From an uncultured Gammaproteobacteria bacterium (GTDB lineage Bacteria > Patescibacteriota > Patescibacteriia > UBA9570 > XYC2-FULL-38-9), in the NCBI GenBank assembly GCA_964344485.1, contig CAYFNF010000003.1, positions 148,467-212,466 of the forward strand: 64,000 nucleotides of DNA, read 5' to 3'. The notes under the pieces are model-generated. The model made no database searches and was not told the DNA's origin. It saw only the letters and a program-made list of their open reading frames with translations. Positions within the stretch are counted from its first letter, which is position 1. Each line of letters starts with the position of its first letter. A program made the position numbers and the translations under genes. Positions 1,485 to 59,071 of the stretch are shown here, one piece after another.

Positions 1485-1575
1485 ATCCTGATCATACTGG
1501 ATTTAAGTGAAAATGCAAACGGTTTTGCTGTTATTATCGCTCGCTCACAGTCGCGGTTTGTGATACAATTCTTTC

Positions 1576-2040
1576 ATGAACCAATATATGAACATTGCGG
1601 TTAAAGAGGCGTTTCAAGGTATTCGTGCTGGACACGGAGGGCCGTTTGGAGCAGTAATTGTCTGTAATGGAGAAGTGATAGCACAGGACCATAACCGCGT
1701 GTTAGAAAGCAACGATCCATCAGCGCACGCAGAGATGTTAGTCATTCGACAAGCTGCGCAGAAACTAAATCGCTATGACCTCTCAGACTGTGAGCTCTAC
1801 GCTTCGTGCGAACCGTGCCCGATGTGTTTTGCAGTTATACACTGGGCGAAAATCACACAATGTTACTACGGCTGCACACGAGAAGACGCTGCACGCTCAC
1901 AGTTTGATGACAAGTACTTATACGATGTGATAAAAGGCACTACTACAGAACTGCGCGTGACCATGGAGCAGATGGACCATGACGCCTGCATCAAGCCGTT
2001 CCAAGAGTGGGACCAGATGGAAGATCGGGAGCAGTATTAA
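1576..2040 (+). CDS. guaD: Guanine deaminase (CDA-fold, GuaD-type)
   Basis: 154 aa. The GGPFGAVIV, DPSAHAEM and CEPCPMC zinc motifs plus the C-terminal FDDKYLYDVI follow the Bacillus GuaD layout rather than TadA (which has VPVGAV). An extended -10 box TGATACAAT at 1561-1569 lies 6 nt before the ATG. Confidence 0.75.
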   Translation: MNQYMNIAVKEAFQGIRAGHGGPFGAVIVCNGEVIAQDHNRVLESNDPSAHAEMLVIRQAAQKLNRYDLSDCELYASCEPCPMCFAVIHWAKITQCYYGCTREDAARSQFDDKYLYDVIKGTTTELRVTMEQMDHDACIKPFQEWDQMEDREQY

Positions 2041-2132
2041 GTGAAGAACACTTTTAGAAAATGGTCGTAGCGAGACTTGAAAGGGAACGTATAGCGCAAA
2101 GGCACTTTTTATATATTATTACGAATGACCGC

Positions 2133-2651
2133 TTAACACTCCACGAGCTTGCTGTAAGTGGATCCAGTATGCGTAATATGTGATTCGTATAAGGCAATTT
2201 TTTGTGCAGTCATCTCCCATTCCACGTCCTGATGAAATGCAGAGTAATCGTATCCAGGTTGCAGCGGTTTTGTACAGCGCCCTAATGTGATGTGCGGTTT
2301 TAAGCTGCGGTGACTAGGTTTATCGAGTGCTTCTTCTACTAGCTCTTTCATTGCATAGATCTCTGGTGTTGCTGTGCCCGTTGCCCAGAGCAACCGAGGG
2401 TTACGGGGTGTTGGACCGAATTCAACAGCAGTAAAACGCAACGCGCAGGGCTGTACGGCTCCACGAATCTGCTCCATCATACTCACTACTTCTAACTCTT
2501 CGCGCTCCTCCCACGGTGGAATCAGCGTAATATGAAGATCACTGCTTCGTAACCAGCGCACTGGTAGGCTGGAAACATTTTTTTCCCACTCAACAATTTG
2601 TTGTTCTAAGTCTGATGATATCGGAATCCCGACAAATAATCGTTTTTGCAT
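2133..2651 (-). CDS. thpR: RNA 2',3'-cyclic phosphodiesterase / 2'-5' RNA ligase family (2H phosphoesterase)
   Basis: 172 aa with the two H-x-T-x motifs of the 2H family (LHITLIPP and PHITLGR) at the expected spacing. Confidence 0.8.
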   Translation of the reverse strand: MQKRLFVGIPISSDLEQQIVEWEKNVSSLPVRWLRSSDLHITLIPPWEEREELEVVSMMEQIRGAVQPCALRFTAVEFGPTPRNPRLLWATGTATPEIYAMKELVEEALDKPSHRSLKPHITLGRCTKPLQPGYDYSAFHQDVEWEMTAQKIALYESHITHTGSTYSKLVEC

Positions 2652-2663
2652 GACTGTATATTA

Positions 2664-3467
2664 TTACACAGCGATGTCTCGTTTCTGGAATACCCACGCT
2701 CCTATTATCGTACACACGACGGCTGCGATAGAAAAAACTACGAGAGAAGTGAAGTTAAATTCATTCTGTGTCATCGCAGCAGCATGATCGTAATAGTAGA
2801 AGAACGAGATGTACTGTAAGTTTTCTGCTTTTTCAATAAGCGCCGCAGCGATATTGGCAACGTACATGAGAAACAGAATCGCCCCACAAAACATATACGC
2901 TCGACTGCGTTCTGAAGAGATCGCAGAGAACATACTTGCCATACTAAACACCGCCCAACCGAGTAACATGGAAAGCGCTGCGATCTTTACATGGGGCCCA
3001 ATATGATACTCCACACCATGAAACTGAACAAAGAGAATCACTGAAAACACCGATGCATTGACGAACACTGCTATGGCTACTAGCCCCGCGATGTAGCGTC
3101 CGAAATATAATCGTAGTCGCGATATAGGTTTTGCTAGGATATGCTCAATGGTCCCTTTCTCTACTTCACGCGCAAGTGTTGCTCCAGCAAATGAAACCAC
3201 GAAGAAGATCACCATCAGCGGCATAATGATGCTGTAATTCTCAACATCCAGGAAATTCTCCAGCGTTTCAAAACTGATGTCCTCAATGTCAAACATCTTC
3301 ATCATCGCTTCTGGGTAGTTCTCGACCATCTTTTGAAACTCCTCAGCTTGATCTAGAAACGAAGGATAGATCGCAACAAACATCCAGGTAAACAACATGC
3401 CAGCAAAACAGTAGGCCAGGATGGATGTCTTTTTATCTATGAGGGTTCTGATGATTATTTGAAACAT
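2664..3467 (-). CDS. ABC-2 type transporter permease
   Basis: 267-aa polytopic membrane ORF with about 6 TM segments. Its start lies 1 nt after the stop of the upstream ABC ATPase gene. Confidence 0.7.
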   Translation of the reverse strand: MFQIIIRTLIDKKTSILAYCFAGMLFTWMFVAIYPSFLDQAEEFQKMVENYPEAMMKMFDIEDISFETLENFLDVENYSIIMPLMVIFFVVSFAGATLAREVEKGTIEHILAKPISRLRLYFGRYIAGLVAIAVFVNASVFSVILFVQFHGVEYHIGPHVKIAALSMLLGWAVFSMASMFSAISSERSRAYMFCGAILFLMYVANIAAALIEKAENLQYISFFYYYDHAAAMTQNEFNFTSLVVFSIAAVVCTIIGAWVFQKRDIAV

Positions 3468-3468
3468 A

Positions 3469-4338
3469 CTAGGAATAGAATTCTAAGAATATATCTTCAA
3501 GATTTGCGTGAGTAATTTCCACATCATCGAATTGATAGTTGCATAGTTTGTCTAGGAGCGGATTGATGTCGCCTTTTACTGTCATCTCTAAACCATTAGT
3601 GATCTGTTGAACAGATGAAATGCCGTCACCCTGAAAGTCGCTTTGTGGTAGCTCTTGTTTTGAAAACAAACGCACCGTGTACATGAGCTTCTCTTTAATG
3701 GACGAAACACTTTCCACCGCCACCATCTTGCCTTGCTTTATTATTCCAATGCGGTCGCAGACACGTTCGACCTCCCGTAAGTTATGCGACGACATAAAGA
3801 TGGTCGCGCCGCGTGCACGTGCTTCTTCCAATAAGTCGTATACTTCGTTTTGCAGTATTGGATCCAGGGCGTTTGTGGGTTCGTCAAATATCAAGACATC
3901 GGGTTCGTTCATCATGGCTAAAATAATGCCGAGCTTCTGCCTGTTACCAGACGAGAGTTTCTTTGCTTTCAGGGACGTATCGAAGTCTAAACGTTTCACT
4001 AGCTGATCTGCGACATTGGTTTTGCCGTTCAGTTTACTGAAGAAATCTATATGTGTTTTACCCGTCCATTTATCGTAGAGCCGTACTGTACCCGAGAGGT
4101 AACCGACCTGATGCTTTAATGCAACAGATTCTTTTTGAGCGTTTTTATCAAGGATAGATATCTCTCCTTTAGTTGGACGGATATAATCCATCATACAGCG
4201 AATGGTAGTGGTCTTCCCTGCTCCGTTCGGACCAAGGAATCCGAAGATCTCTCCTTTTTCTACTTGAAAAGAGATACCGTCGACAGCTTTAATTTTGCCG
4301 AAGTGCTTATGAAGATCTGATAGTGATATAACGCTCAT
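3469..4338 (-). CDS. ABC transporter ATP-binding protein
   Basis: Walker A GPNGAGKTT, signature LSSGNRQK, Walker B VLIFDEPT, H-loop SSHN. A TATAGT box at 4348-4353 lies 9 nt upstream of the ATG. Confidence 0.9.
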   Translation of the reverse strand: MSVISLSDLHKHFGKIKAVDGISFQVEKGEIFGFLGPNGAGKTTTIRCMMDYIRPTKGEISILDKNAQKESVALKHQVGYLSGTVRLYDKWTGKTHIDFFSKLNGKTNVADQLVKRLDFDTSLKAKKLSSGNRQKLGIILAMMNEPDVLIFDEPTNALDPILQNEVYDLLEEARARGATIFMSSHNLREVERVCDRIGIIKQGKMVAVESVSSIKEKLMYTVRLFSKQELPQSDFQGDGISSVQQITNGLEMTVKGDINPLLDKLCNYQFDDVEITHANLEDIFLEFYS

Positions 4339-4389
4339 ACTGTGGGTACTATAACAAAAAAATGAATTAAAAAAAAGGGCGATCTGGAA

Positions 4390-4896
4390 CTACACGGTGT
4401 CGCGGAAGGTCTCTTGCGGCTGATCGATCCACGGGCACTCACCGCTGGCGTCTGTTGCCACGAACTGCGCGTGGACGTCCGGTTCGACCGTTGAGGTCTG
4501 CTTGTGCCACAGGACAGCGAGCGTGATCTCGTCGCGTGGGATACTCTCCCAGTCAGCAAGCCACTGCAGGGTGCGTTCCGTGGTCAGACCCGAGTCCGTC
4601 AGGTCATCGACCAGAATCACTCCAGCGCGCCGAAGCGGTTTGGCTGAAGTGAGGTCGCGGCTGAGCATGACCTCGCGCTGCTTCTGGTCCCCGTCCGGGT
4701 AGCTGGAGACCGAGAGCACGGCCAGCGGAAGACCGAGCGTACGAGCGATCAGCTCACCGGGCAGCATGCCGCCCTTGGCGATGCAGATCACCTGCTGGAA
4801 CTCGATTCCGCTCTCGCGAAGCTTCCGGATCAGGGTCCGGACCAGCTCGAAGTATGCGTCCCAGGTCACGTGTATTCGCGGGTGTTCGTCTGACAT
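4390..4896 (-). CDS. gpt: Xanthine-guanine phosphoribosyltransferase-like PRTase (high-GC island A)
   Basis: IHVTWDAYFELVRTLIRKL, ICIAKGGMLPGELIARTLGLP, SVSSY, PRPP motif VILVDDLTDSGLT and PWIDQP parallel E. coli Gpt block by block. GGAGGA lies 10 nt upstream of the ATG at 4896; the ORF-track start at 4914 is an alternative. Line 4441-4500 has 39/60 G+C. Confidence 0.75.
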   Translation of the reverse strand: MSDEHPRIHVTWDAYFELVRTLIRKLRESGIEFQQVICIAKGGMLPGELIARTLGLPLAVLSVSSYPDGDQKQREVMLSRDLTSAKPLRRAGVILVDDLTDSGLTTERTLQWLADWESIPRDEITLAVLWHKQTSTVEPDVHAQFVATDASGECPWIDQPQETFRDTV

Positions 4897-4975
4897 GATG
4901 GTTCCGTCCTCCAATTAGTTTTGCCCGTTTCTATTGTACAACAAAAACAGTTTTTTTAGTATGTAGGGCTATAAA

Positions 4976-5893
4976 TTAATTTACCGTATAATCTGCGAAC
5001 TCGGGCTCTCGGATGAATTCAACATGAGCCAGGTTGCCGACTCCTGTTTCCTGGTCCTGACGAATCATGCGCTCTAGATGTGGAATAATGCTCTCTGGAT
5101 AAAAACGAATCGCGCTTAAACTATTTCTCAGCACATCGGATAAACGCACAGTTGCGTTTCCGGTCTCTTGAAAAGAAGGATCAATATGCTGGATTAATTG
5201 TTCGAGTAAACCGCGGAGGTGAGCCTCTGCTCGTCGCATGTTTTCCACTTCATCGTCTCGTAATTGTATTTTTCCACTATGTATCAATTCCATAATATGA
5301 CTGGAAAGAACACCGAATAGATGTGGATTCTCCATTTCAAGTTTATAGTAGCGATGAGATCCACCTTGTTCATCAGTAACCAAGAACTGTATTTCATCCA
5401 TAGGGTACTCTCTGACTCCTGCTTTGCTCATCAAGTTTGGCATTGCGAGAACACGATCCTGGTCCCCAATGCTTGCAGTGAGCTCTTTGACTAGTCGATC
5501 AATCTCAGGAGCAGAACGATCCAATACAGTTGTGCGGTCCCCAGAATACTCCGTGCCAGGTTGTTCTCGTTGAATGACAAGCTTTCGATCAAGCACCGCG
5601 TTGTTCACCGTACGCCCAACAAAGTAATCTACTTGTGTTCTATCCAACGTACGTAGTAAGCTCGTGCGGTTATAACGCTTTCCTAGTGTTGGTGTTCGTA
5701 GCTGATCATACGTACCTTGCGAGAACTCCCGTTGCGGTTCACGTGTGAGTAAATGCTGTAGGTATCGCTCGGAACGTTCGACTGTTTGTCCTTCTTTTAG
5801 TTTCTCTTCTCTCAACCGCGCAACAAAACCTGGATCATCGCGTAAGCGCGGATCTTGCCATCCTCCCCTTTGATATAACGGCCTACCTGGCAT
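4976..5893 (-). CDS. Hypothetical protein (305 aa)
   Basis: Long ORF of backbone composition with no signal peptide or TM segment and no domain I recognise. A TATAAT box at 5900-5905 lies 6 nt upstream of the ATG. Confidence 0.55.
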   Translation of the reverse strand: MPGRPLYQRGGWQDPRLRDDPGFVARLREEKLKEGQTVERSERYLQHLLTREPQREFSQGTYDQLRTPTLGKRYNRTSLLRTLDRTQVDYFVGRTVNNAVLDRKLVIQREQPGTEYSGDRTTVLDRSAPEIDRLVKELTASIGDQDRVLAMPNLMSKAGVREYPMDEIQFLVTDEQGGSHRYYKLEMENPHLFGVLSSHIMELIHSGKIQLRDDEVENMRRAEAHLRGLLEQLIQHIDPSFQETGNATVRLSDVLRNSLSAIRFYPESIIPHLERMIRQDQETGVGNLAHVEFIREPEFADYTVN

Positions 5894-5943
5894 TGTTGTA
5901 TTATACTACTATCTGTCTCTATTCTGGGTCTGAATTACTGCTT

Positions 5944-5980
5944 TGTCAATATTGACAGCTTTTACTACGTGATATATAGT
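5944..5980 (+). promoter_or_regulatory. Sigma70-like promoter TTGACA-17-TATAGT, with its -35 inside a 14-bp palindrome
   Basis: TTGACA at 5952-5957, a 17-nt spacer, and TATAGT at 5975-5980. TGTCAATATTGACA (5944-5957) is a perfect palindrome that places a second TTGACA on the minus strand. Confidence 0.5.
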
Positions 5981-5989
5981 ACTCGCAAC

Positions 5990-6040
5990 ATGAAGAACCA
6001 CGTATACAACGCTACAGTAACAACTACCCACCTTATGTGA
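5990..6040 (+). other. Mini-ORF (16 codons, MKNHVYNATVTTTHLM) or small RNA within a promoter-terminator unit
   Basis: The ATG is 9 nt after the TATAGT box, the same leaderless geometry as real genes here. There is no SD. The unit is followed by the terminator at 6070-6092. Confidence 0.3.
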
Positions 6041-6069
6041 GGCGTTGTTTAGTTTGTATCAATACCCTA

Positions 6070-6092
6070 GCGCCTCACTCGAGGCGCTTTTT
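6070..6092 (+). terminator. Intrinsic terminator
   Basis: GCGCCTC-ACTC-GAGGCGC (7-bp GC-rich stem) followed by TTTTT. Confidence 0.65.
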
Positions 6093-6107
6093 GATTATTT
6101 ATTCATT

Positions 6108-6235
6108 ATGAACTTTCTCTTTTTTCAATCAACTACTACACCGTTATTGCTCTTCTTCCTCACTGGAACAGTGCCGTAATTAGTGTTGTGTAGTTGAAAG
6201 GAAGAAGAGCGCGGTCCGAATGGGCCGTGTTTTTG
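6108..6235 (+). promoter_or_regulatory. Structured leader upstream of the carboxylate-amine ligase gene: mini-ORF, long-range helix, inner hairpin and a second terminator
   Basis: A 23-codon ORF spans 6108-6179 (MNFLFFQSTTTPLLLFFLTGTVP). A perfect 12-bp inverted repeat pairs GCTCTTCTTCCT (6149-6160) with AGGAAGAAGAGC (6199-6210). An inner hairpin CACTG-GAA-CAGTG lies at 6161-6173. CAACTAC (6130-6136) is complementary to GTAGTTG (6190-6196). Terminator CGCGGTCC-GAAT-GGGCCGTG plus TTTTT lies at 6210-6235. Confidence 0.45.
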
Positions 6236-6263
6236 TTCTTTTGAATGTAAAGGAGGAATTCCA

Positions 6264-7232
6264 ATGTATGGAATTGAAGCAGAGTATCTGATGACGAGTC
6301 ATCGCATCCAAGATGTGCTCAAGCTGCAGCTCCCGGGCGTGACCGCCGAGTTCTTCGACTTCATGGTCGAGATCATCACGGATCCGCACGCGCGTGCACG
6401 TCAGGCTGTGGACCAGCTGGAGCGTCGGGTGCAAAGAATGCGTCGACGAGGTGTGGAGCTCGAGCAGTGGGCGTCCTTCCCGGACCGAGTTCAGCCGATT
6501 ACGTTCACGGACGTGGTCGCAGACAGCCCGTACTACCGCTGGGTCTATGACCAAGCGTGTAGATTCACGGGTCATGAGCCGCTGGACCTGCACCATGTGG
6601 GCATGCACCTGAACTACTCGTGCTCGGACATGAGCGAAAACGAGCTGGTGCACGCGGTGAACTGGTGTCGGTGCATGAACTTCTTGTTCATCCTGTTCTC
6701 AGCAAACTCACCGTTCCAGAATGGGCAGTCCTGCGGGCTACTGTCACGACGGTCATATCAGTACCCCAACCGATACGACGTCCCGCTGTGGGAAAGCGCC
6801 GTCGCGTTCAAGCGCTGGATCCAGGAGCAAGAAGCGTTGTATCGCATCTACCCTGGAAAAGGTCGCTGCTGGATGACGGTCTGCCCGCGCTTAGAGGATA
6901 ATGATTTCCGCAAACCGATTCAACGGATCGAACTGCGATCGTTAGACTCAGGCACCAATGTCCGCTTCGGTGTTGTGCACGGGTGCTGCAAGCTACTCGA
7001 GCGCATTGTCTTGCGCGCACGCCAAGGAGCGCCCCTGCCAGCGCAACTGAACGAACTGCAGCACAACGATCGAGAGGTCTCGCGGCTCGGAGCAAGCGCA
7101 TGGGTACGCTTGAATGGGCAAGAGTTCTGCGTGCAGCAGCTCGCTGAACAATGGGCAGCGGGTATCGACACGCTGGAGCAGATATTAACGCACGGATGCG
7201 CAGCACAATCGTCCTTGCGCTACTGCGTTTAA
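6264..7232 (+). CDS. Carboxylate-amine ligase, glutamate-cysteine ligase family 2 (YbdK-like) (high-GC island B)
   Basis: The N-terminal YGIEAEYLM and EFFDFMVEIITDP..ARQAVDQLERRV follow the GCS2 pattern (G-x-E-x-E, then E...E..T.P with a helical region). At 322 aa it is shorter than typical YbdK. AAAGGAGG lies 7 nt upstream of the ATG. Line 6361-6420 has 38/60 G+C. Confidence 0.65.
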   Translation: MYGIEAEYLMTSHRIQDVLKLQLPGVTAEFFDFMVEIITDPHARARQAVDQLERRVQRMRRRGVELEQWASFPDRVQPITFTDVVADSPYYRWVYDQACRFTGHEPLDLHHVGMHLNYSCSDMSENELVHAVNWCRCMNFLFILFSANSPFQNGQSCGLLSRRSYQYPNRYDVPLWESAVAFKRWIQEQEALYRIYPGKGRCWMTVCPRLEDNDFRKPIQRIELRSLDSGTNVRFGVVHGCCKLLERIVLRARQGAPLPAQLNELQHNDREVSRLGASAWVRLNGQEFCVQQLAEQWAAGIDTLEQILTHGCAAQSSLRYCV

Positions 7233-7327
7233 CTCTCTGCAACACAAAGAGAACATGGTCTAGTATGAGCCACACATCATACTTTTTTTCTTTCTTCTAA
7301 ACTGCGCCTACGAATAATAAAACGGTA

Positions 7328-8551
7328 TTATTTCATTCTGAACTTCTTCCATGGGCTCCACTTGCTCCACCCAGCATCATTGCCGCATCGCACTCTGAAA
7401 CGATAGTACTGTTTACTCTTCACGAATTTCTTTGACTTTTTCAGAAATTTTGAATTAGTAGTAAGTCCTTTAAACTTTTTCACAGATGTAAATTTCCCGT
7501 TTGCTTTCTTTTTTTGTAACACTGCTTGATAGGTATCGGCATTTGCTTTCGCTTTCCACCACAACTTTGCTGACTTCTTCTTTTTCTTTTTCACTTTCAG
7601 ATGCTTCTTTTTCTTGATCTTGCTTGGTGCAGTGAGTTCATTAATTGTAAAATTTGCTAATGCATAATCTTCTGCTGAATCTGCTGCGCCATCAGTGGTC
7701 ATAGCAACACTATGCGCTCCGGCAATCCCAGCAACAGCATCACTGATCAATAAATCATACGCATCTTCATTACTTTTAGCTACGTCGGTAAGGACCTCAC
7801 AACTGAGTACAGAATTCTGACTGAGGTCATACGTTAAAATCTCATCTAAAGTGCCTTTAGAATTGTCTATAGTTGCATCAGTTAGATCCCACCCTGATTC
7901 ACTAGGCGATTTATTCTCTGCAACAAACACAATGCTTAGCTCTTCTCCGCTAGATAATCCACGGCTAAGCGTAAAATAGAGTTCTAGATCCAGTGTAGAG
8001 CCGGCGGTTGCCTCAGTTGGAGAAACTGATAACGAACCTACGGCATTTCCAAGGCCTTGGATGGACACAGTATCATCAGTCATGGTTGCATTCGCACTTT
8101 CACTCAGAGGCTGCGTTGTAACTCCAAAGCGAATTGACGTTGCCTCATCAGGATTCACCGCATCTGCTAGGGTGACGGTATACTTGTCTGCGGGGAGTTT
8201 TGCGGATAACGTTAATACAGTGCCCCTGCCATCAAGCACTGGTGAAAAAATAAAATTGGAGTTGCCAATAGATCCCTCTGATGAAGGAACCACATTTTGT
8301 AAATTTACATACTCCGGACCGTCGTCTTCTGTAGAGAAAATTGAGATAGTTGAACCGCTGGGTAGATCTACGTTAGTAGTGACGGCGATAGTATACGTCT
8401 CGGTTTCCCCAGCAATAGAAGCTGTTGGTGCAGCGGATACTTCTGATATATTTGCATCTTCCGTTCCTTGCATGCTAAATGCTTGCGCAGATGATGGCGC
8501 GTACACCAGGACTGCTGCGATAGCGAGTGTAAGCAAGATTGTTTTTTTCAT
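7328..8551 (-). CDS. Secreted surface protein with a poly-lysine linker and a C-terminal fibronectin type III-like domain
   Basis: Signal peptide MKKTILLTLAIAAVLVYAPSSAQA. The body is S/T/D/E-rich. The linker is KIKKKKHLKVKKKKKKSAK. The FN3-like end is LWWKAKANADTYQ...YYRFRVRCGNDAGWSKWSPW. Confidence 0.7.
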   Translation of the reverse strand: MKKTILLTLAIAAVLVYAPSSAQAFSMQGTEDANISEVSAAPTASIAGETETYTIAVTTNVDLPSGSTISIFSTEDDGPEYVNLQNVVPSSEGSIGNSNFIFSPVLDGRGTVLTLSAKLPADKYTVTLADAVNPDEATSIRFGVTTQPLSESANATMTDDTVSIQGLGNAVGSLSVSPTEATAGSTLDLELYFTLSRGLSSGEELSIVFVAENKSPSESGWDLTDATIDNSKGTLDEILTYDLSQNSVLSCEVLTDVAKSNEDAYDLLISDAVAGIAGAHSVAMTTDGAADSAEDYALANFTINELTAPSKIKKKKHLKVKKKKKKSAKLWWKAKANADTYQAVLQKKKANGKFTSVKKFKGLTTNSKFLKKSKKFVKSKQYYRFRVRCGNDAGWSKWSPWKKFRMK

Positions 8552-8612
8552 ATGTATTCTTTATTGATTAAGTGTATAGTATAACAGAAAGCAATGCTTA
8601 AAAAAAGCTGCG

Positions 8613-46980: not shown

Positions 46981-47523
46981 TTATAACTTGAACATGCGGA
47001 TTGCAGTATCTCCGGCTGACTCCTCTTCTCTCTCAAGATCTTCATCGAGAAAATCCAGAAGCATCTTTCGTAAGGTGACTGGATTCTTGTCTCGCAGTGG
47101 AATCGAAAATTCTCCGCGTAGAATAGTATTTTTTGGTTTTATATAGAGCTGCTTAATTAACGGTGGTTCATAAATAACAGCAAATGACTCGATCTCACGA
47201 TAGATATAGAATCTATCACCAATCTGTACGCCGGTTTCATATATCACAAACGGTAGAATTGCAGGGTCGGAACGATGGTGTGTAAAAACAATCAACGCAA
47301 TGAGTAGAATGATTAGTGCAAACAAGAAATTACCATCTGCAATTGCATAGATCAGCAGACCACCTCCGATGAGGATGGCAAAGAAATACCAAATCGGTCC
47401 ACGTTCGTGTTTTTCATACTCTGGGAACTCCCATTGTTCTAGGACGCTTCCACGTTCAATGGGGTTTACCCCCATGCGAATGGACCGCTCTCGGTCTTCA
47501 TCTGTAAGGATTCTTTCTGGCAT
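46981..47523 (-). CDS. Hypothetical membrane protein
   Basis: 180 aa with two adjacent TM segments (WYFFAILIGGGLLIYAI, FLFALIILLIALIVF) followed by a soluble C-terminal domain. Confidence 0.55.
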   Translation of the reverse strand: MPERILTDEDRERSIRMGVNPIERGSVLEQWEFPEYEKHERGPIWYFFAILIGGGLLIYAIADGNFLFALIILLIALIVFTHHRSDPAILPFVIYETGVQIGDRFYIYREIESFAVIYEPPLIKQLYIKPKNTILRGEFSIPLRDKNPVTLRKMLLDFLDEDLEREEESAGDTAIRMFKL

Positions 47524-47594
47524 ACATACGTATTATAGCATTTTTTTTATCGAATGAAAAGGGGATATTTCAACTGTTTTTTACTAGATTTTTA

Positions 47595-47622
47595 TTGACT
47601 TTTTTAAAAAAATCGTTATAGT
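47595..47622 (+). promoter_or_regulatory. Promoter TTGACT-16-TATAGT upstream of the RNA gene cluster
   Basis: TTGACT at 47595-47600 and TATAGT at 47617-47622, about 32 nt upstream of the 129-nt element. Confidence 0.45.
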
Positions 47623-47654
47623 TAGTAGCGCACGTTTCAGTTTGAGTGATATAT

Positions 47655-47783
47655 GGAGAGGTAGCTGAGTGGGTTCGAGCGGGCAATAAGTGAATGCATT
47701 TCTGCATTCACGGCCGCGAGAACGGGCGAACGATGCTGCAAAGCAGCCGTGAGTCCCGGATGAAAGCGATGAAATACCTCTCT
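47655..47783 (+). ncRNA. Unassigned structured RNA candidate or degenerate tRNA-Ser-like element (129 nt)
   Basis: The 5' end GGAGAGG/TA/GCT-GAGTGGGTTCG-AGC/G copies the acceptor and D-arm of the two downstream tRNA-Ser genes. The 3' end TACCTCTCT pairs with the 5' end. The ~95-nt interior has no anticodon arm or T-arm but contains perfect hairpins: GTGAATGCA-TTTC-TGCATTCAC (47690-47711) and GCTGC-AAA-GCAGC (47735-47747). Confidence 0.35.
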
Positions 47784-47811
47784 TGGCTTCATTTCAATAT
47801 AGTTCTAACTT

Positions 47812-47903
47812 GGAGAGGTGGCTGAGTGGTTGAAAGCGACGGATTGCTAATCCGTTATATCGGTATTTAGCCGGTATCGAGGGTTCAAATCCCTCCCTCT
47901 CCG
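47812..47903 (+). tRNA. tRNA-Ser (anticodon GCT)
   Basis: A 92-nt class II tRNA: GGAGAGG/TG/GCT-GAGTGGTTGAA-AGC/G/ACGGA-TTGCTAA-TCCGT/23-nt variable arm/GAGGG-TTCAAAT-CCCTC/CCTCTCC/G. Confidence 0.9.
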
Positions 47904-47927: not shown

Positions 47928-48014
47928 GGAGAGATGACAGAGCGGTCGAATGTGACGGTCTTGAAAACCGTTGGGCCTTCACGGGTCCCGTGGGTTCGAA
48001 TCCCACTCTCTCCG
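47928..48014 (+). tRNA. tRNA-Ser (anticodon TGA)
   Basis: An 87-nt class II tRNA: GGAGAGA/TG/ACA-GAGCGGTCGAA-TGT/G/ACGGT-CTTGAAA-ACCGT/18-nt variable arm/GTGGG-TTCGAAT-CCCAC/TCTCTCC/G. Confidence 0.9.
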
Positions 48015-48015
48015 C

Positions 48016-48399
48016 ATGACCATACCTTTTCTTATTTCTAACATAACAATTGTCCTCCTCTTTGTCGGACACTTGTACTATGGAGATAAAGAAATAAAAC
48101 GAATTGAACCAAGGGATTCATCTGTTAATCAAGGTCTTTGGACATTGGCACGAGTTGCATGGCACTGGGTATCTTGGGACTTATTGTTCATTGCGATACT
48201 CATGGCCTTAGTAAATTTTACAGGTGTTTTTTCAGGGAATGAAGCTATTGTACAAAAAATTATCGCGGTTTACATCATTGGAGTTTCCGTCTCTTGGACA
48301 ATCACCACTTGTATATCTCGGCCATGCGAGAAAAAATTCGTTATGTTTATTCCTGCTGCGCTGATTATTCTGAGTATAGGCATACTGGCTTTTTTCTAA
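48016..48399 (+). CDS. Hypothetical membrane protein (127 aa)
   Basis: The ATG at 48016 comes immediately after the tRNA, and the ORF-track start at 47971 would overlap the tRNA. Four hydrophobic segments. Confidence 0.4.
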   Translation: MTIPFLISNITIVLLFVGHLYYGDKEIKRIEPRDSSVNQGLWTLARVAWHWVSWDLLFIAILMALVNFTGVFSGNEAIVQKIIAVYIIGVSVSWTITTCISRPCEKKFVMFIPAALIILSIGILAFF

Positions 48400-49882: not shown

Positions 49883-49914
49883 CACCAGCTATATAATTCT
49901 ATAGACATACAACT

Positions 49915-50097
49915 ATGGGTAAAAAAATACATGACAGCGGACCGTCAGGAGCAATCTATGGCCTTGGTTTAATCGGAGCATTGGTCTACTACATTGCACA
50001 TGCTTCTGGTTTCTGGGTCGGAGTACTCGGAGTGCTGAAAGCGCTGGTCTGGCCAGCATTTGTGGTCTATGACCTGATGAAGTTTCTGAACATGTAA
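49915..50097 (+). CDS. Small membrane protein (60 aa)
   Basis: Two hydrophobic helices (IYGLGLIGALVYYIA, VGVLGVLKALVWPAFVV). A TATAGA box lies 9 nt upstream of the ATG, and the gene is followed by a terminator. Confidence 0.5.
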   Translation: MGKKIHDSGPSGAIYGLGLIGALVYYIAHASGFWVGVLGVLKALVWPAFVVYDLMKFLNM

Positions 50098-50142: not shown

Positions 50143-51105
50143 CTATTCAGCTAACCATGCGAGCTGGTTATAGTACCCTGGATGCACTTGCTCCATGCAT
50201 GATCCTTCGGTCCGAAGAAAGTGCCGGAGCGCTTCTTTATCGTCTTCTGTTCTGGGAGTATATTCAAAGTGCTGAAAGTGATCTACTTGTCCATTAAAGA
50301 TAAAACTGCGAGCATGACGAAGTAGCTGAAGCGTTTCATCAGATGCTTTCCCATATACTGAAAGTTGTTGCATATACGCTTCAGCGAAATGCTTTGGGAT
50401 CTCTCTTTTTGCTGGGCCTTCACTCCATCGGGGGTTTACTGAACCGATATTCCGCTGCGGTATGGTTTCTGTGCCAAATGAATCATATGGACCAAGATCT
50501 CTATGAGTAATCGGCACAGTGACCCTTGCGTCTCCAACGTGAGAATACGCTAAAGCATGCCCGCGCATTGGCCACATGACGCCAGAATCAACTCCCATTT
50601 GTTGTGTTACGTACGCATAAAACGCTGCTCCAGTATCACACTCTAGAATTGAATACATACCATCTTGGCCGGTAGCGCCTGTTACTGCATCAAATCCATC
50701 TGGGTGTAAGTACTCTATTGTTGCATTTGGTGTTGGACCTCGATCAATATGCTGGTAACCAAAACGCAAGAATCCAGAGCTACGAAATGCTTCGTAGTTC
50801 ATCTTTGCAACCATGTAGGAACGAAAATTCTCTTCAGTCGGTTCTACCTCGTGGTCCTTGCAGAAATTCATAAACTGCTCTTGTTGAATCGGTAACTTCA
50901 TTAACTTCAGCACCTCTTCACGAGCGGCTGCAGTAAAATCACGAATTTCAATGGTCTCGACTGCGTGTTGCTCAGCTGTGCGCATTAATTCTCCAGCAGT
51001 TGCTTTGGGCGCAATTGCAGCAGCGCCAAGAAGCGACCCTGCAAGCTGTAAAAACTTTCTTCTATCCGGACCACTACGGCCGGGTCCTGAATCTCGTCTT
51101 TTCAT
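50143..51105 (-). CDS. Secreted hypothetical protein with a twin-arginine-like signal peptide
   Basis: The N-terminal DRRKFLQLAGSLLGAAAIAPKATA matches the (S/T)RRxFL Tat consensus. No domain is recognised in the 320-aa body. Confidence 0.6.
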   Translation of the reverse strand: MKRRDSGPGRSGPDRRKFLQLAGSLLGAAAIAPKATAGELMRTAEQHAVETIEIRDFTAAAREEVLKLMKLPIQQEQFMNFCKDHEVEPTEENFRSYMVAKMNYEAFRSSGFLRFGYQHIDRGPTPNATIEYLHPDGFDAVTGATGQDGMYSILECDTGAAFYAYVTQQMGVDSGVMWPMRGHALAYSHVGDARVTVPITHRDLGPYDSFGTETIPQRNIGSVNPRWSEGPAKREIPKHFAEAYMQQLSVYGKASDETLQLLRHARSFIFNGQVDHFQHFEYTPRTEDDKEALRHFLRTEGSCMEQVHPGYYNQLAWLAE

Positions 51106-51209
51106 ATAGTGATTTTAACATATTTGGCAAAAAAAATCAAGTCCTACACATAAATCCCCTTTTTTTTGATATAATAGAATCAGTATAAAAAACAATTAAA
51201 TAAAACACT

Positions 51210-52427
51210 ATGGTTGATCGAATCACCAAGGTCACGCGCACTGGGTACGGATCGCGTGTGGGCCAGTCTATTGGCGGCGTTCTTATTGGACTGCTGCTAT
51301 TTGTCGCGTCGTTCGTTGTGCTCTACTGGAACGAAGGCCGGCAAGACATGTCTCTGATTGCAGCAACTGCAACTGAGATTGAAGCAGAGACAGCAAACCA
51401 AGACGCTTCATTGGATGGAACGCTCGTTTCTCTCACCGGAACACTTTCCACCGATGAAACACTTGGCGATGACTTTCTTGTTGCTGGCGACTATATCGCT
51501 GTCAAACGAACTGTCGAGATGTATGCATGGGAAGAGTCCACGTCCAGCGAAACGCACACAGAGACTGGTGGTTCTGAGACAACCGAAACTACATACGAGT
51601 ACGACACAGTATGGACAGAGACACCTGCTGACTCAGATGACTTTGAGTACTCAGGGAGTTACTATAATCCAACTAAGGAGATTGAAAGCGTCACAAAAAC
51701 TGTTACTGACGCAAAAGTAGGTGTATATGCTGTAGATGCAGACGATGCAGAACTGCCAGGTTTTGATGAGGTATCACTTTCAGAAGACAACACGTATATC
51801 CTAGATACAGCTGCTGACCTCTATTGGGAAGATCCGCTATACGACACCTATTATGAATACGGGGATCAAGCACTATCTAGTTCATACATCTACATTGGAT
51901 ACGGCACATTAGATAACCCAACGGTCGGAGACTATCGTATCAGCTACTCCGTGCTACCAGCTGGTGAAGATGTGACGGCATTCGGAGAACTAGATGGAAC
52001 AAAAGTAGCAAGCTACACAGATGAAGACGGTAACACCTTATATCGCTTGTTTGACGGCTCTCGTGAAGAAGCAATTGCAACACTACACACCGAACATGTG
52101 ACTTCTACATGGATCTTACGTGTAGTTGGATTCTTCATGATGTGGATTGGACTCGCAGCTGTGTTTGGGCCAGTAAGCACGGTACTCTCCTTTATTCCAT
52201 TCCTTGGCAAGCTCAGCAAGAGTTTAATCGGGGTAGTAGCATTTGTCGTAGCGCTTGTACTGTCAGTGCTTACCATTGTTATCTCCATGATCCTACACAG
52301 CGTTGTCGCACTGATTATTATCGGTATTCTCGTACTTGCTGGAGTCGTGCTCATTGTTATGGGATATAAGAAAAAGAAAGGTGAAACTCCACCTGCATCC
52401 CCTCCATCTCCGGAGCCTACTCAATAA
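51210..52427 (+). CDS. TMEM43/DUF1625 family membrane protein
   Basis: The N-terminus reads ..SRVGQSIGGVLIGLLLFVASFVVLYWNEGR (the WNEGR signature after TM1). A large acidic loop is followed by three C-terminal TM segments. Confidence 0.6.
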   Translation: MVDRITKVTRTGYGSRVGQSIGGVLIGLLLFVASFVVLYWNEGRQDMSLIAATATEIEAETANQDASLDGTLVSLTGTLSTDETLGDDFLVAGDYIAVKRTVEMYAWEESTSSETHTETGGSETTETTYEYDTVWTETPADSDDFEYSGSYYNPTKEIESVTKTVTDAKVGVYAVDADDAELPGFDEVSLSEDNTYILDTAADLYWEDPLYDTYYEYGDQALSSSYIYIGYGTLDNPTVGDYRISYSVLPAGEDVTAFGELDGTKVASYTDEDGNTLYRLFDGSREEAIATLHTEHVTSTWILRVVGFFMMWIGLAAVFGPVSTVLSFIPFLGKLSKSLIGVVAFVVALVLSVLTIVISMILHSVVALIIIGILVLAGVVLIVMGYKKKKGETPPASPPSPEPTQ

Positions 52428-54035: not shown

Positions 54036-54725
54036 TTATTTGTAATGCTTATTGAGTAGTTTTAGAACTTTCTTTCCAACACGCTTACCAGAGTTCGACT
54101 TCGGATGCCCGTCATACGGATCAGAGACATATTTCCGCTTCATATACCAGTGTTTTGGTCCTGTAAGCTGATAGAATAACCGGAATGAGTCTAAATTATC
54201 ACCGTTGTAATCTGAGATGTAGCGTTTTTTCAACCACTTATCAAACTTCTTTGCGCGCTTGGCGTTTGCTTTGCTGGTCATCTGTCTTGGTAGTGGAGGT
54301 GTAGACCACGGGATAAATAGCACATCTGGATGCGCTTGAAATATATCGTACAGTTTTCGATACTCCTTTTTATACTCGTTCAACTGTGCCTTGGATGAAA
54401 TATCACTATTTGGATAACATGATTTAAACATCAAGACGTCTGGAGTACCAATAATATCCCAAGAATCTGGATCAGAGAGCTGATCATGCCAGTCATTATA
54501 ATCTGTCGCTCCATCCCACCACGGTGCGCGCAGGTCGTATCCGTTGTTTTCTAGCTTGGTTTTCATGCCTCCGTCACGATAGATCTCTCCAGTAGAGTGA
54601 TGGATAAAAAAGACCTCTACATCAGCGGCTTCGCCCGCAAACGGGAAACAAAAAAACGCGCAGGAGATGAGCGTTGTTGTTAATCCAATGCCAATAATTC
54701 TCATATTGTTTGCGTTACTTATCAC
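54036..54725 (-). CDS. Secreted hypothetical protein
   Basis: 229 aa with an N-terminal signal/anchor (GIGLTTTLISCAFFCFPFAGEA). No diagnostic motif. Confidence 0.55.
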   Translation of the reverse strand: MISNANNMRIIGIGLTTTLISCAFFCFPFAGEAADVEVFFIHHSTGEIYRDGGMKTKLENNGYDLRAPWWDGATDYNDWHDQLSDPDSWDIIGTPDVLMFKSCYPNSDISSKAQLNEYKKEYRKLYDIFQAHPDVLFIPWSTPPLPRQMTSKANAKRAKKFDKWLKKRYISDYNGDNLDSFRLFYQLTGPKHWYMKRKYVSDPYDGHPKSNSGKRVGKKVLKLLNKHYK

Positions 54726-54898
54726 TTAGTATTATATACTTTTTCCATGCGCAGAACAATGTTTTACTTTTTTAGTACAGCATGTTACAGTGCTCGTATG
54801 ATATTCATCAATGCACAATATACCGCCTGTTCATGTTCTCTTGAGTACGCCTCGAGGGATTTGTGTTTGTGTTAACTAGAACTATCAAACTTCTCCTT

Positions 54899-56431: not shown

Positions 56432-56970
56432 ACAAAAAAGAAAAAATCGCATTTATTAAGGTCAGTGCATTTCTGATTGCAGTGTTAGTTATAGTATTGG
56501 TTGCCAGCTATGGACTGTTTACTGGGGTGACATTAAAGATCTCAAAACCCGTTTTTTCAGAAGCCCAGAGAGTGCTTAACCCCTCAATAGAGGTTGTAGA
56601 CTCTGCTGACCCAGTCATTAAAGTTGATTCAACAACTGAAACTGATGCAGTAAGTGCGGATATCATTACGGACTTTACTGCGCCTGACAGAAGTACTACA
56701 GAACGGACGTTGCGGACATTTTGGTGGGCAGCTCAGCAAGGTGACACTAAAACAGCGCTCACGTGCGTCGATCAAGACAAAGTATCACAAGGGAGAGATG
56801 GTCGAGATATTCATGAACATATCGACATCATTAAAGATATACCATTTGAAGAGTTCACGGTTGTTACCAGAGAACAAGGGGCATCAGTGCGCCTTCTAAC
56901 GTACTTTATGGACTATGACATGGAACAACAAGAAGATGGTAGTTGGGTCATCGTCTCTATTCATCCGTAA
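56428..56970 (+). CDS. Hypothetical membrane-anchored protein
   Basis: 180 aa with an N-terminal TM segment (VSAFLIAVLVIVLVASYGLF). A 4-nt ATGA overlap with the upstream gene. Confidence 0.55.
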   Translation: MNKKEKIAFIKVSAFLIAVLVIVLVASYGLFTGVTLKISKPVFSEAQRVLNPSIEVVDSADPVIKVDSTTETDAVSADIITDFTAPDRSTTERTLRTFWWAAQQGDTKTALTCVDQDKVSQGRDGRDIHEHIDIIKDIPFEEFTVVTREQGASVRLLTYFMDYDMEQQEDGSWVIVSIHP

Positions 56971-57028
56971 ATCGTACTAATACGGTTCTCGCCTTTCCAG
57001 AACACGTGTAAACTTTTATAATACGTGT

Positions 57029-59071
57029 ATGTCTGCATCCACACCACTATCACAGTTACACGGAGTCGGGCCTTCAATAATGAAGCGTTTGAAAGTTCTT
57101 GGCATTACCACCACACATGATTTAATGTGGCACTTTCCACGTCAGTATGAGGACCGTTCACTCATGACTGATATTATTGACGTAGAACCGGATAGCAAAG
57201 TGACTATCCACGGCACGATTGAAAAAATACAGTCACGTCAGTCGTGGAAACGTCGTATCAACCTCACTGAAGCAACTGTTACTGATACTACAGGATCTAT
57301 AAAAGCGATCTGGTTTAACCAGCCGTACGTAGCAAACACACTAAAAAAGGGGGATACAGTACAGCTCTCTGGTCAAGTAAAGAAAACCAAGTACGGAACG
57401 TCTCTGCAGAGCCCGGTCTATGAGAAAGTATTTGAAGAAAAAGATACGACGCATACTGGGCGCATTGTTCCAAAGTACTCCCTGACAAAGGGTGTAACGC
57501 AAAAGCAACTTCGGTATTTTATGAAGCAGGCGCTGGAAATAGAACTCCCGGTTGAGGATTACGTCCCTGAAGAGATACTACAGGAGTACGAATTATTTCC
57601 TTTAGCTGATGCACTGCAACATATTCACTTCCCCACTTCTGAGCAGGACTTTCTTCAAGCAAAACAACGATGTGACTTCGACTCACTCTATATCATTCAG
57701 CTCTATGCGCAGCTCCTGCGTCAAGAGTTGCAATCTCAGCAAGCCTCCAGTATCGAGTTCCAGGAACGTGCGATAAAACACTTTGTTGACGAGCTCCCGT
57801 TTACGTTAACCAATGCACAAAAGAAAGCATCATGGGCCATTCTACAGGATGTAGAGAAACAGACCCCGATGAACCGGCTGCTTATTGGAGATGTTGGATC
57901 AGGAAAAACCATAGTGGCAGCGATCGCGATGTTGAATGCAGTTTTAAATGGCGCGCAAGCTGCGCTCATGGCGCCAACAGAGATTCTAGCAAAACAGCAC
58001 TATCAGACACTACAAGAAGTATTTGACACAAAGAACATCACGATTGAATTGCTCACTGGTTCTACAAAAAACGGACCAAAGCAACAACAGCTTGAAGGGT
58101 GTGCGTCTGATATCGTTGTCGGTACACACGCGTTAATTCAAGAGAGCGTCACGTTTAACAATTTAGGTCTAGCTATAGTGGATGAGCAACATCGGTTTGG
58201 GGTAGAACAACGAAAAGCGCTGAAATACCAGTCTGGGGATGAAAAAACTGCGCCGCATCTGCTGTCCATGACCGCCACCCCGATTCCACGAACATTAGCG
58301 CTAGCATTATACGGAGACTTAGACCTCTCTATTATTGATGAACTACCGACAGGTAGAAAGCCAGTCACTACGAATCTTGTTCCCCCAAACAAGCGAGAGG
58401 ATGCATATGGATTTATCCGGGAACACCTCGACCGCGGAGAGCAGTGTTTTGTGGTCTGCCCTCTGATTGATCCTTCGGATACGCTGGAAGTCAAAGCTGT
58501 CACCACAGAGTATGAACACTTGTGCAACGAAGTGTTTCCTGAGTACCAGTTAGAGATTCTACACGGAAAGATTCAGCCACAGGAGAAAGATGATATCATG
58601 CAACGCATGCGTAATAAGGAGATCGACATCTTGGTCTCCACATCTGTTATTGAAGTTGGAGTAGATATTCCGAATGCGACAATTATCGTAATTGAAGGTG
58701 CGGACAGATTTGGATTAGCACAACTACATCAATTCCGTGGTCGAGTCGGTCGTTCTGATACACAGTCATACTGCTTGCTCTTCTCCGAATCAGATAATGA
58801 ACAGACTATTAAACGGCTACAGGTACTGACGAACACCTATGATGGATTCAAGCTTGCAGAACAAGACTTACAGCTGCGTGGAGCTGGAGAGTTCTTTGGT
58901 AAAAATCAGACCGGGTTCTCCCCATTAGCAATGCTTGCGTACCAGCAGCCACAATTACTAAACAGTGCTCGCTCAGCAGCAAAACAAACACTAGCGAAGG
59001 ATTATATCTCTTCCACGCCATTGCTAAAAAAGAAAATCACTGAATTTACAAAAAGCATCCACTTAGAGTGA
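57029..59071 (+). CDS. recG: ATP-dependent DNA helicase RecG
   Basis: Wedge/OB N-terminus, GDVGSGKT, DEQHRFG, MTATPIPRT and QLHQFRGRVGR. A TATAAT box at 57017-57022 lies 6 nt upstream of the ATG. Confidence 0.95.
   Translation: MSASTPLSQLHGVGPSIMKRLKVLGITTTHDLMWHFPRQYEDRSLMTDIIDVEPDSKVTIHGTIEKIQSRQSWKRRINLTEATVTDTTGSIKAIWFNQPYVANTLKKGDTVQLSGQVKKTKYGTSLQSPVYEKVFEEKDTTHTGRIVPKYSLTKGVTQKQLRYFMKQALEIELPVEDYVPEEILQEYELFPLADALQHIHFPTSEQDFLQAKQRCDFDSLYIIQLYAQLLRQELQSQQASSIEFQERAIKHFVDELPFTLTNAQKKASWAILQDVEKQTPMNRLLIGDVGSGKTIVAAIAMLNAVLNGAQAALMAPTEILAKQHYQTLQEVFDTKNITIELLTGSTKNGPKQQQLEGCASDIVVGTHALIQESVTFNNLGLAIVDEQHRFGVEQRKALKYQSGDEKTAPHLLSMTATPIPRTLALALYGDLDLSIIDELPTGRKPVTTNLVPPNKREDAYGFIREHLDRGEQCFVVCPLIDPSDTLEVKAVTTEYEHLCNEVFPEYQLEILHGKIQPQEKDDIMQRMRNKEIDILVSTSVIEVGVDIPNATIIVIEGADRFGLAQLHQFRGRVGRSDTQSYCLLFSESDNEQTIKRLQVLTNTYDGFKLAEQDLQLRGAGEFFGKNQTGFSPLAMLAYQQPQLLNSARSAAKQTLAKDYISSTPLLKKKITEFTKSIHLE

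Follow-up and report, generated by a model that had tools for sequence, protein, structure and literature searches.

In a 64-kb window of DNA (the whole stretch analyzed here; it has 45.8% GC and encodes about 50 proteins and 5 tRNAs), genes of native composition and a small set of GC-rich open reading frames (ORFs) appear to initiate translation in different ways. We consider it likely that the window derives from a Saccharibacteria-like genome of the candidate phyla radiation (CPR; Patescibacteria), in which native genes start independently of a Shine-Dalgarno (SD) sequence in three modes, the anti-SD of the ribosome is probably active, and the GC-rich ORFs use canonical SDs. The closest recG relatives are metagenome-assembled genomes of Candidatus Saccharibacteria/Saccharimonadales, at only 41-43% identity, and the closest pyk relatives are 45% identical; scans of genome and metagenome contigs found no relative above 45% identity. 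Gene names assigned in an earlier reading of the window (hereafter, the original prediction) agree with Pfam matches, which name bS6, bS18, a PALP/CysK-like protein, ClpC, M48/HtpX, LemA, a deaminase (dCMP_cyt_deam_1), a giant M48-ABC1 protein, and phosphoenolpyruvate (PEP) synthase.

The starts of native genes are depleted of SDs. We scored SDs by the duplex energy with an assumed canonical 16S tail (ACCUCCUUU). Across a curated sample of 46 native genes, the mean energy is −0.7 kcal/mol and 1 start reaches −6 kcal/mol or lower, versus a mean of −2.0 kcal/mol and 7% of positions at or below −6 kcal/mol in the random background. Native starts are thus less complementary to the anti-SD than random sequence, as expected from the original prediction that they lack SDs. 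Two sets of candidate SDs were rejected: GGTGG before 46145 (−6.6 kcal/mol), the single native case below −6 kcal/mol, is the 3′ arm of a terminator hairpin, and TAGGAT/AGGA at 9926, 13197, and 14671 pair at a background level (−4.0 kcal/mol), one of them from 15 nucleotides (nt) away.

The GC-rich ORFs are found in islands embedded in native sequence (4339-4952, 6246-7276, 29312-29890, and 33863-35402). The islands have 56-61% GC (ORFs up to about 74%) and a third-codon-position GC content (GC3) of 0.70-0.91, versus 46% and about 0.42 for the genome. All six ORFs (A to F; Table 1) carry the SD 4-10 nt upstream that had been claimed for them. Five of these SDs are strong (at or below −8.3 kcal/mol), where only 2.7% of island background positions reach −8 kcal/mol; the SD of ORF D is weak (−5.6 kcal/mol) and not significant alone. 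The frames chosen in the original prediction show the coding pattern GC3 > GC1 > GC2, and the chosen start is the first or only one in 5 of the 6 ORFs. The ATG of ORF A, a phosphoribosyltransferase (PRTase) gene, is backed by homolog N termini (MSDEHPRIH versus MSDQEAVRIH), while NCBI places the start at a later GTG. In the AT-rich flank of every island lies a promoter of native type, followed by a leader that is longer (29-270 nt) than those of native genes. With such a promoter and a longer, more structured leader in front, each GC-rich ORF would recruit the 30S subunit through its canonical SD. ORFs C to F have no Pfam or NCBIfam family, save for a negligible DidA match; ORF F has no homologs, and for ORF D the sole match is to a repeat within two giant proteins. 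A further 62% GC stretch at the window edge (63657-64000), of repetitive sequence (GCTGCAGATGCAGCTGGAG), lies directly upstream of the gene at 63323-63733 and is probably the 3′ end of a low-complexity ORF that runs off the window.

Avoidance of SD-like strings extends into the coding sequences. When 53.8 kb of native ORFs were compared with synonymous-codon shuffles, GAGG was the most depleted of the 256 4-mers (140 observed versus 254 expected, z = −12), and GGAGG and GAGGA ranked second and third among 1008 5-mers. Their reverse complements CCTCC and CTCCT are not depleted, and the avoidance is therefore confined to the sense strand. Work on internal SD avoidance predicts such a sense-strand loss of SD-like strings when the anti-SD is active. 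From this depletion, we infer that the ribosomal anti-SD is probably still present and active. The bS6 gene (36711-37376) encodes an unusually long protein of 221 amino acids (aa), of which the S6 domain occupies only residues 26-115, with extensions on both the N- and C-terminal sides. CPR bS6 proteins are enlarged, and an action of the extended bS6 near the anti-SD is only a lead.

Low SD usage by itself has precedents in the CPR. Like the SD-scarce CPR genomes, this one has few genes with SD pairing (PMC10783764; PMC9297842). The SD-scarce CPR described in the literature mostly belong to lineages without CCUCC (some Parcubacteria, Absconditabacteria, Wolfebacteria, and Campbellbacteria); this genome differs from them in that its anti-SD seems to be active. 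Within the CPR, only some Parcubacteria have been reported to lose the anti-SD (PMC9297842), and Saccharibacteria do not appear in the list of genomes without CCUCC (PMC10783764, Table S4). In other Saccharibacteria loci (L001 and L003), 16-24% of normal-GC genes have SDs. Our literature search found no direct report of leaderless or SD usage for Saccharibacteria/CPR.

ORF B, which encodes a carboxylate-amine ligase similar to GCS2, shows that a GC-rich, SD-bearing gene can recur in this state. It has only four relatives (46-50% identity), which come from independent samples and occupy non-syntenic sites (contigs L028, L030, L031, and L032; Table 1). In all four contigs, the GC content of the ligase gene is above that of its flanking genes, by about 4-16 percentage points. 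The flanking genes of native composition are without a strong SD in 4 of 4 cases in L031 and L032 and in 13 of 14 cases in L028, and several flanking genes have a leaderless-type or short-leader layout. The separation is less clean in L030, where 2 of 5 flanking genes score about −6.5 kcal/mol and the GC content of one neighbor (47%) comes close to that of the ligase gene. A genome carrying the GCS2-like gene at native composition was not found. Because elevated GC content and an SD accompany the gene in four other SD-poor, CPR-like contigs at non-syntenic sites, we read its SD and high GC content as a persistent trait of the cassette or gene class, not as debris of one recent transfer. The L032 contig also has, adjoining the ligase gene at 775-1014, a GC-rich (62.5% GC) 79-aa ORF with a TATACT promoter and the SD AGGAGG (−11.5 kcal/mol), which suggests that such mini-islands cluster elsewhere too. 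The neighboring 48%-GC gene in L032 has a leaderless-type layout.

The SD of the ligase gene belongs to a 290-nt leader that is strongly folded (z = −5.2, from the minimum free energy fold only), and in this fold it pairs with a pyrimidine tract in the second of two mini-ORFs. The promoter before the first mini-ORF is the best match in its 20-kb scan (11 of 12 positions), and both leader hairpins carry T runs. A match to the Rfam Phe_leader family is full-length over 6104-6237 but sub-threshold (23.7 bits versus 55). Of the four other loci, three also have mini-ORFs with threonine runs ahead of the ligase homolog (L028, with two mini-ORFs, L031, and L032). The mini-ORFs have 16-28 codons with runs from TTT to TTTTTTT, in the company of terminator-like hairpins, and their recurrence supports the earlier proposal of a real mini-ORF at 5990. 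The leader also has the order typical of attenuators, a short ORF rich in one amino acid followed by an intrinsic terminator and then by the gene. The arrangement has the appearance of either a conserved leader-peptide attenuator or a pair of precursor peptide and ligase. Leader-peptide control would explain why the ligase gene needs an SD that can be masked. Under the likely explanation, the SD and elevated GC content are, at least for this cassette, a stable property carried between genomes and tied to a leader-peptide/terminator region with a paired SD. Canestrari et al. are said to have described, in 2020, leaderless small ORFs with polycysteine tracts that act as attenuators in mycobacteria. 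The arrangement at 5990, a threonine-enriched mini-ORF 9 nt after a strong −10 box, then terminator hairpins, upstream of a gene, resembles these attenuators and leader-peptide attenuation in general. It differs in that its codon bias is toward threonine (and phenylalanine), not cysteine, and in that the gene is a GC-rich ligase.

The original prediction had held that the split in SD usage tracks gene origin, and this is supported only in part. The closest relatives of the PRTase outside this genome (51-54% identity) are found at native GC content in unrelated, SD-using, non-CPR genomes (L026, 58% GC, and L033), which fits import, whereas the GCS2-like gene does not behave as a recent arrival. 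If import were the whole explanation, the SDs would be passive leftovers, brought in with fragments from SD-using GC-rich donors and neither needed nor used here. We regard this as unlikely. Besides the PRTase relatives, it draws on the orphan status of ORFs C to F, on the continuation of ORF D into native sequence in the manner of a decaying insert, and on the GC3 contrast, which suggests little amelioration. It does not account for the GCS2-like gene, which keeps its SD and elevated GC content in four genomes at 46-50% identity and for which a donor of native composition was not found. Every island, moreover, combines a native-type promoter with a correctly spaced SD, and the sense-strand depletion of GAGG and GGAGG argues for an active anti-SD. 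The islands share with horizontally acquired islets the sharp contrast in GC and GC3 and the presence of PRTase relatives in unrelated genomes. They differ from them in lacking flanking repeats, tRNA-site signatures, and any integrase-like ORF in or beside islands A to F, in consisting of single ORFs behind promoters of the recipient type, and in the recurrence of the ligase islet with the same layout in distant genomes. The recurrent cassette raises the questions of why its composition has not ameliorated and whether SD use is functionally partitioned.

A bolder version of the likely explanation is that native mRNAs, being leaderless or A-rich in their leaders and purged of GAGG in their ORFs, avoid a working anti-SD, so that the SD is a reserved channel for a small set of GC-rich cassettes (promoter, leader, SD, and ORF) that persist in, or move between, related genomes. 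The GCS2-like ligase, behind its leaderless mini-ORFs with threonine runs, would be the example. We offer this only as a speculation and think it rather improbable. If true, translation here would naturally run through two channels, by analogy with the bS21/rpsU circuit of Flavobacteria, perhaps in connection with a subpopulation of ribosomes or with exchange between this organism and GC-rich actinobacterial hosts. In Flavobacteria, the anti-SD is reportedly occluded by bS21, bS18, and bS6 while a strong SD is kept on rpsU, findings ascribed to Jha et al. in 2021 and McNutt et al. in 2023. The window resembles this Bacteroidetes-type pattern (GeneMarkS-2 group B) in that most genes lack an SD, starts are A-rich and unstructured, the anti-SD has apparently been kept, and a few genes have strong SDs. 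It differs in that a leaderless layout is not a hallmark of Bacteroidetes and in that the SD-bearing set consists of GC-rich accessory ORFs rather than a ribosomal protein gene.

Under the likely explanation, the first of the three native modes is a leaderless or near-leaderless start. We searched for −10 boxes (at least 5 of 6 matches to TATAAT, among them A2 and T6) separated by 5-9 nt from a following ATG, and found them at 11 of the 46 native genes versus 49 of 2175 other ATGs in the window (2.3%; binomial P = 4.9e−9). The hexamers and gaps quoted in the original prediction are present at guaD, the ABC ATPase gene, the 305-aa gene, the M48-ABC1 gene, pyk, and recG, and five further cases (1236-1484, 2133-2651, ppsA at 29930-32413, 46981-47523, and 50143-51105) add to these six firm ones. 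In each of the 11, the start is an ATG and the first start codon of the ORF.

These boxes could conceivably be not promoters but an AT-rich, non-SD translation signal or an effect of composition, with the true transcription starts further upstream. The upstream regions are indeed 74% A+T, overall counts of promoter-like sites in the window are not above those of shuffles, and non-SD upstream motifs are known in other phyla (GeneMarkS-2 group B, PMC6028130). We nevertheless judge this reading very unlikely. Composition-preserving shuffles of the upstream 60 nt gave boxes at a mean of 2.3 genes and a maximum of 9, and never at the observed 11, in 5000 trials. The −10-to-ATG distances, tabulated within the window, form a clear peak at 5-9 nt with a sharp mode at 6 nt, so that the A of the ATG, 7 nt past the box, coincides with the canonical position of a transcription start. 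The peak is reproduced with an automatic ORF caller that takes the first ATG (12 of 52 genes), and control loci from Streptococcus and Gracilibacter show no 5-9 nt peak and have SDs on 45-54% of genes. A TGn extension precedes 7 of the 11 boxes versus 38 of the 552 −10-like hexamers in the window (6.9%), an enrichment of about 9-fold, and several boxes (those of 1236, 46981, 50143, recG, and the 5990 mini-ORF) have −35 partners 16-18 nt away. Finally, 10 of the 11 boxes stand at the head of a transcription unit (intergenic distance of at least 34 nt, divergent orientation, or a position after island ORF D). The exception is 2133-2651, which follows its upstream gene by 12 nt; other tightly coupled internal genes are without a box. 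A translation motif would not behave in this way, since it should precede all genes.

The layout is also conserved beyond the window. Orthologs of pyk in L014 to L016 (44-45% identity) keep TATAAT at a gap of 7 nt, and a Saccharibacteria recG ortholog has TATACT at a gap of 8 nt. Because the tblastn alignments of both genes begin at residue 1, their starts can be taken as fixed. The same SD-poor pattern of leaderless and short-leader genes is seen in L016, L028, and L021. We infer that a leaderless or near-leaderless layout is the most likely reading of these starts: a sigma-70-type −10 box, often TGn-extended, would lie 5-9 nt before the ATG at about 40% of some 26 estimated unit heads, transcription would start no more than about 3 nt from the A of the AUG, or on it, and the message would be read by direct binding of the ribosome and initiator tRNA to the 5′-terminal AUG. 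The giant M48-ABC1 gene is ambiguous, in that its TATAAT is present at a gap of 5 nt as described, but an alternative TTGACT-17-TGaTATTTT promoter would give a leader of about 12 nt. Three of the leaderless-type promoters share the decamer TATAATACGT (pyk, 33869-33878; 180-aa gene, 47528-47537; recG, 57017-57026), which may be a discriminator or a regulator site. Within native ORFs (162-63733), fragments of the −10 box (AAAT, CAAT, AATT, ACAAT, and AAAAT) and T runs rank among the most depleted k-mers. Selection against spurious promoters and terminators inside genes would fit this depletion, given that a −10 box and an ATG may suffice for expression in this genome.

Leaderless genes are a known feature of other phyla. 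In GeneMarkS-2 group C (Actinobacteria and Deinococcus-Thermus), the first genes of operons have a Pribnow box 6-8 nt ahead of the start codon (PMC6028130). In leaderless-rich genomes, 25-50% of units have the AUG at the 5′ end of the transcript, according to reports that include differential RNA sequencing of M. tuberculosis and Deinococcus deserti (PMC6028130, PMC4007540, PMC3898074). The window resembles group C in its AUG start codons and in the −10 box close to the starts of unit heads. It differs in phylum and in that leadered genes of group C carry SDs, whereas the native leadered and internal genes of the window do not. For Saccharibacteria, our search found no report of leaderless genes, and a TM7x transcriptome preprint contains no discussion of untranslated regions or promoters; for Nanosynbacter lyticus, a 2025 study derived 188 transcription start sites from RNA-seq (PMC12641261).

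The leaderless layout that the original prediction assigned to native genes holds for many unit heads, but a roughly equal number have short SD-less leaders or operon-coupled starts. A second peak of −10 boxes, 25-34 nt upstream of the start, comprises about 10 genes, with predicted leaders of 17-27 nt that are A/U-rich, contain 9% G, and have no SD. This class makes up about another 40% of the unit heads; the remainder, including the gene of a giant adhesin-like protein, is unassigned. We propose that these weakly folded leaders would constitute a second native mode, of unstructured entry. In the third mode, operon-internal genes, 17 of which are spaced −4 to +12 nt (in one case +20) relative to the gene before them, could start by termination-reinitiation. 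Start regions of all native classes fold weakly (−2.8 to −4.8 kcal/mol per 50 nt versus −6 to −8.7 kcal/mol in internal windows), and this weak folding, with an A/U-rich and G-poor composition, is the only shared signal that we see. The 60-aa membrane gene (49915-50097), which had been counted as leaderless, probably belongs elsewhere: TATAGA is present at a gap of 9 nt but lacks the conserved final T, an exact TATAAT lies at a gap of 17 nt, and a leader of about 10 nt is more likely than a leaderless start.

Several points weigh against the explanation that we favor. The native sample comprises 46 genes from one 64-kb window of a contig of at least 301 kb. A −10-like hexamer is a consensus match only, of a kind whose overall number does not exceed that of shuffles, and for some genes (18215-23764 and the adhesin gene) alternative promoters exist upstream. 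ORFs C to F have no informative homologs, which leaves GC3 periodicity, promoters, and SDs as the evidence that they are coding. The GAGG depletion could have another cause at the mRNA level, and, since no 16S 3′ end was found in the window or in 33 other loci, the presence of the anti-SD is supported indirectly. An artefact, with GC-rich reads wrongly assembled into a low-GC bin or start codons wrongly chosen, might be suspected from the metagenome-type assembly, the singleton status of the window proteins (one NCBI contig of 301,665 bp), and the differing NCBI start of the PRTase. We regard it as extremely improbable. Native sequence lies on both sides of the islands, a separate ENA contig contains island C and its flanks without a difference, five independent samples contain the GCS2 island, and the alignments of pyk, recG, PRTase, and GCS2 to their homologs start at residue 1-8. 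The same sequence is also present in ENA ERZ930068 / PRJEB17505.

Leaderless initiation is known mainly from Actinobacteria/Deinococcus, and SD-independent initiation mainly from Bacteroidetes. The two regimes appear to coexist in this ultrasmall CPR genome, with the SD confined to a few GC-rich genes. In such genomes, gene finders that expect SDs will misplace starts, as the NCBI start of the PRTase illustrates. For genetic tools in Saccharibacteria, TGnTATAAT placed 6 nt before an ATG may suffice for expression, and an SD may give a distinct level.

Table 1. Predicted start-site features of the window and of the contigs carrying ligase homologs (gap, nt between −10 box and start codon; spacer, nt between SD and start codon; energies in kcal/mol)
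Feature	Coordinates	Strand	Details
ORF A, PRTase, 63% GC	4390-4912	-	SD GGAGGA 4907-4912 (−9.3), spacer 10, ATG 4896; TACAAT promoter 36 nt upstream, AT-rich flank
ORF B, GCS2-like carboxylate-amine ligase, 58% GC	6249-7232	+	SD AAAGGAGG 6249-6256 (−11.7), spacer 7, ATG 6264
ORF C, 97 aa, GC3 0.91	29466-29875	-	Promoter TTGACA-17-TAGAGT 29875-29847; SD GAGGAG 29765-29770 (−8.7), spacer 5, ATG 29759
ORF D, 144 aa	33879-34324	-	Weak SD GGAG 34321-34324 (−5.6), spacer 7, ATG 34313; continues into native AT-rich sequence
ORF E, 110 aa, membrane-like	34443-34856	+	Promoter TTGACT-17-TATTAT 34443-34471; SD GGAGG 34515-34519 (−10.6), spacer 4, TTG 34524
ORF F, 116 aa, membrane-like	34927-35340	+	Promoter TTGATT-16-TATACT 34927-34954; SD GGGGAG 34978-34983 (−8.3), spacer 6, GTG 34990
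Ligase promoter and first mini-ORF	5952-6040	+	TTGACA-17-TATAGT, gap 9; 16-codon Thr-rich mini-ORF 5990-6040, MKNHVYNATVTTTHLM
Ligase leader	6069-6256	+	Terminator hairpin 6069-6088; mini-ORF 6108-6179 (MNFLFFQSTTTPLLLFFLTGTVP); terminator hairpin 6205-6234; SD 6249-6256
Leader and ligase, window	5952-7232		
Leader and ligase, L028	9705-10993		Ligase gene 53% GC; flanking genes 33-43%; SD −13.1
Ligase, L030			Ligase gene 49% GC; flanking genes 39-47%; SD −11.8
Leader and ligase, L031	538-1660		Ligase gene 53% GC; flanking genes 46-50%; SD −7.4
Leader and ligase, L032	1106-2227		Ligase gene 62% GC; native neighbor 48%; SD −11.8
Leaderless-type, guaD-like deaminase gene	1561-1578	+	Extended −10 TGaTACAAT 1561-1569, gap 6, ATG 1576
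Leaderless-type, 82-aa gene (1236-1484)	1482-1519	-	TTTGCA-17-TATGAT (box 1491-1496), gap 6, ATG 1484
Leaderless-type, 172-aa gene (2133-2651)	2649-2668	-	TGtAATAAT (2660-2665), gap 8, ATG 2651; weakest case
Leaderless-type, ABC ATPase gene	4336-4356	-	TGtTATAGT (4348-4353), gap 9, ATG 4338
Leaderless-type, 305-aa gene	5891-5905	-	TATAAT (5900-5905), gap 6, ATG 5893
Leaderless-type, M48-ABC1 1849-aa gene (18215-23764)	23762-23811	-	TGtTATAAT (23770-23775), gap 5, ATG 23764; alternative TTGACT-17-TATTTT 23811-23783
Leaderless-type, PEP synthase gene ppsA (29930-32413)	32411-32427	-	TATGAT (32422-32427), gap 8, ATG 32413
Leaderless-type, pyruvate kinase gene pyk	33864-33881	-	TGaTATAAT (box 33873-33878), gap 6, ATG 33866
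Leaderless-type, 180-aa gene (46981-47523)	47521-47560	-	TTTTCA-17-TGcTATAAT (47532-47537), gap 8, ATG 47523
Leaderless-type, 320-aa gene (50143-51105)	51103-51140	-	TTGATT-17-TGtTAAAAT (51112-51117), gap 6, ATG 51105
Leaderless-type, recG	56994-57031	+	TTTCCA-17-TATAAT (57017-57022), gap 6, ATG 57029
Short SD-less leader	8549-8583	-	TGtTATACT, gap 26, ATG 8551
Short SD-less leader	40573-40607	+	TTGACG-18-TATAAT, gap 26, ATG 40605
Short SD-less leader	42658-42695	+	TATAAT, A-rich gap 29, ATG 42693
Short SD-less leader	51170-51212	+	TGaTATAAT, A-rich gap 34, ATG 51210
Short SD-less leader	54702-54736	-	TATAAT, gap 26, ATG 54704
Short SD-less leader	60079-60118	-	TACAAT, gap 31, ATG 60081
60-aa membrane gene (49915-50097)	49892-49917	+	Exact TATAAT 49892-49897, gap 17; TATAGA 49900-49905, gap 9, a poor −10

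Two individual starts differ from these layouts. For the gene of the 1789-aa adhesin-like protein (region 29203-29346), a promoter close to consensus (TTGACA-17-TGnTAAAAT, 29346-29318) is located about 110 nt upstream, and a hairpin of 11 bp that resembles a terminator (29246-29218) directly precedes the ATG. A leaderless promoter with the box TATCCT was rejected for this gene, the promoter with the hairpin ~110 nt upstream being much stronger. The leader has no Rfam match at the gathering threshold, and its architecture suggests that it is attenuated or riboswitch-like. The divergent genes at 37602-40592 (minus strand) and 40605-41096 (plus strand) are annotated only 12 nt apart, with back-to-back overlapping promoters (TATATAAT and TATACT) falling within the first 16 codons of the minus-strand ORF (region 40544-40607). 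The true start of this ORF is probably the ATG at 40544, which would give it a 24-nt leader.

Further observations concern tRNA genes. The gene of tRNA-Ser(tga) (region 47928-48018) ends at the discriminator base 48014, with CCA not encoded, and the ATG of a 127-aa membrane ORF follows at 48016. Processing of the tRNA 3′ end would free an mRNA whose leader is 1 nt long, so that a leaderless message could arise by "tRNA punctuation." Another gene begins 18 nt past tRNA-Ser(gga), at 14488. At 47595-47800, a strong promoter (TTGACT-16-TATAGT) precedes about 150 nt with a tRNA-Ser-like 5′ end (GGAGAGGTAGCTGAGTGG...); ARAGORN and Rfam give no match there even at E ≤ 1, and Rfam is also blank for 47560-47830. 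The segment is possibly an unannotated structured RNA or a degenerate tRNA. The tRNA-Arg at 46825-46899 has the anticodon GCG instead of the usual bacterial ACG (inosine) type.

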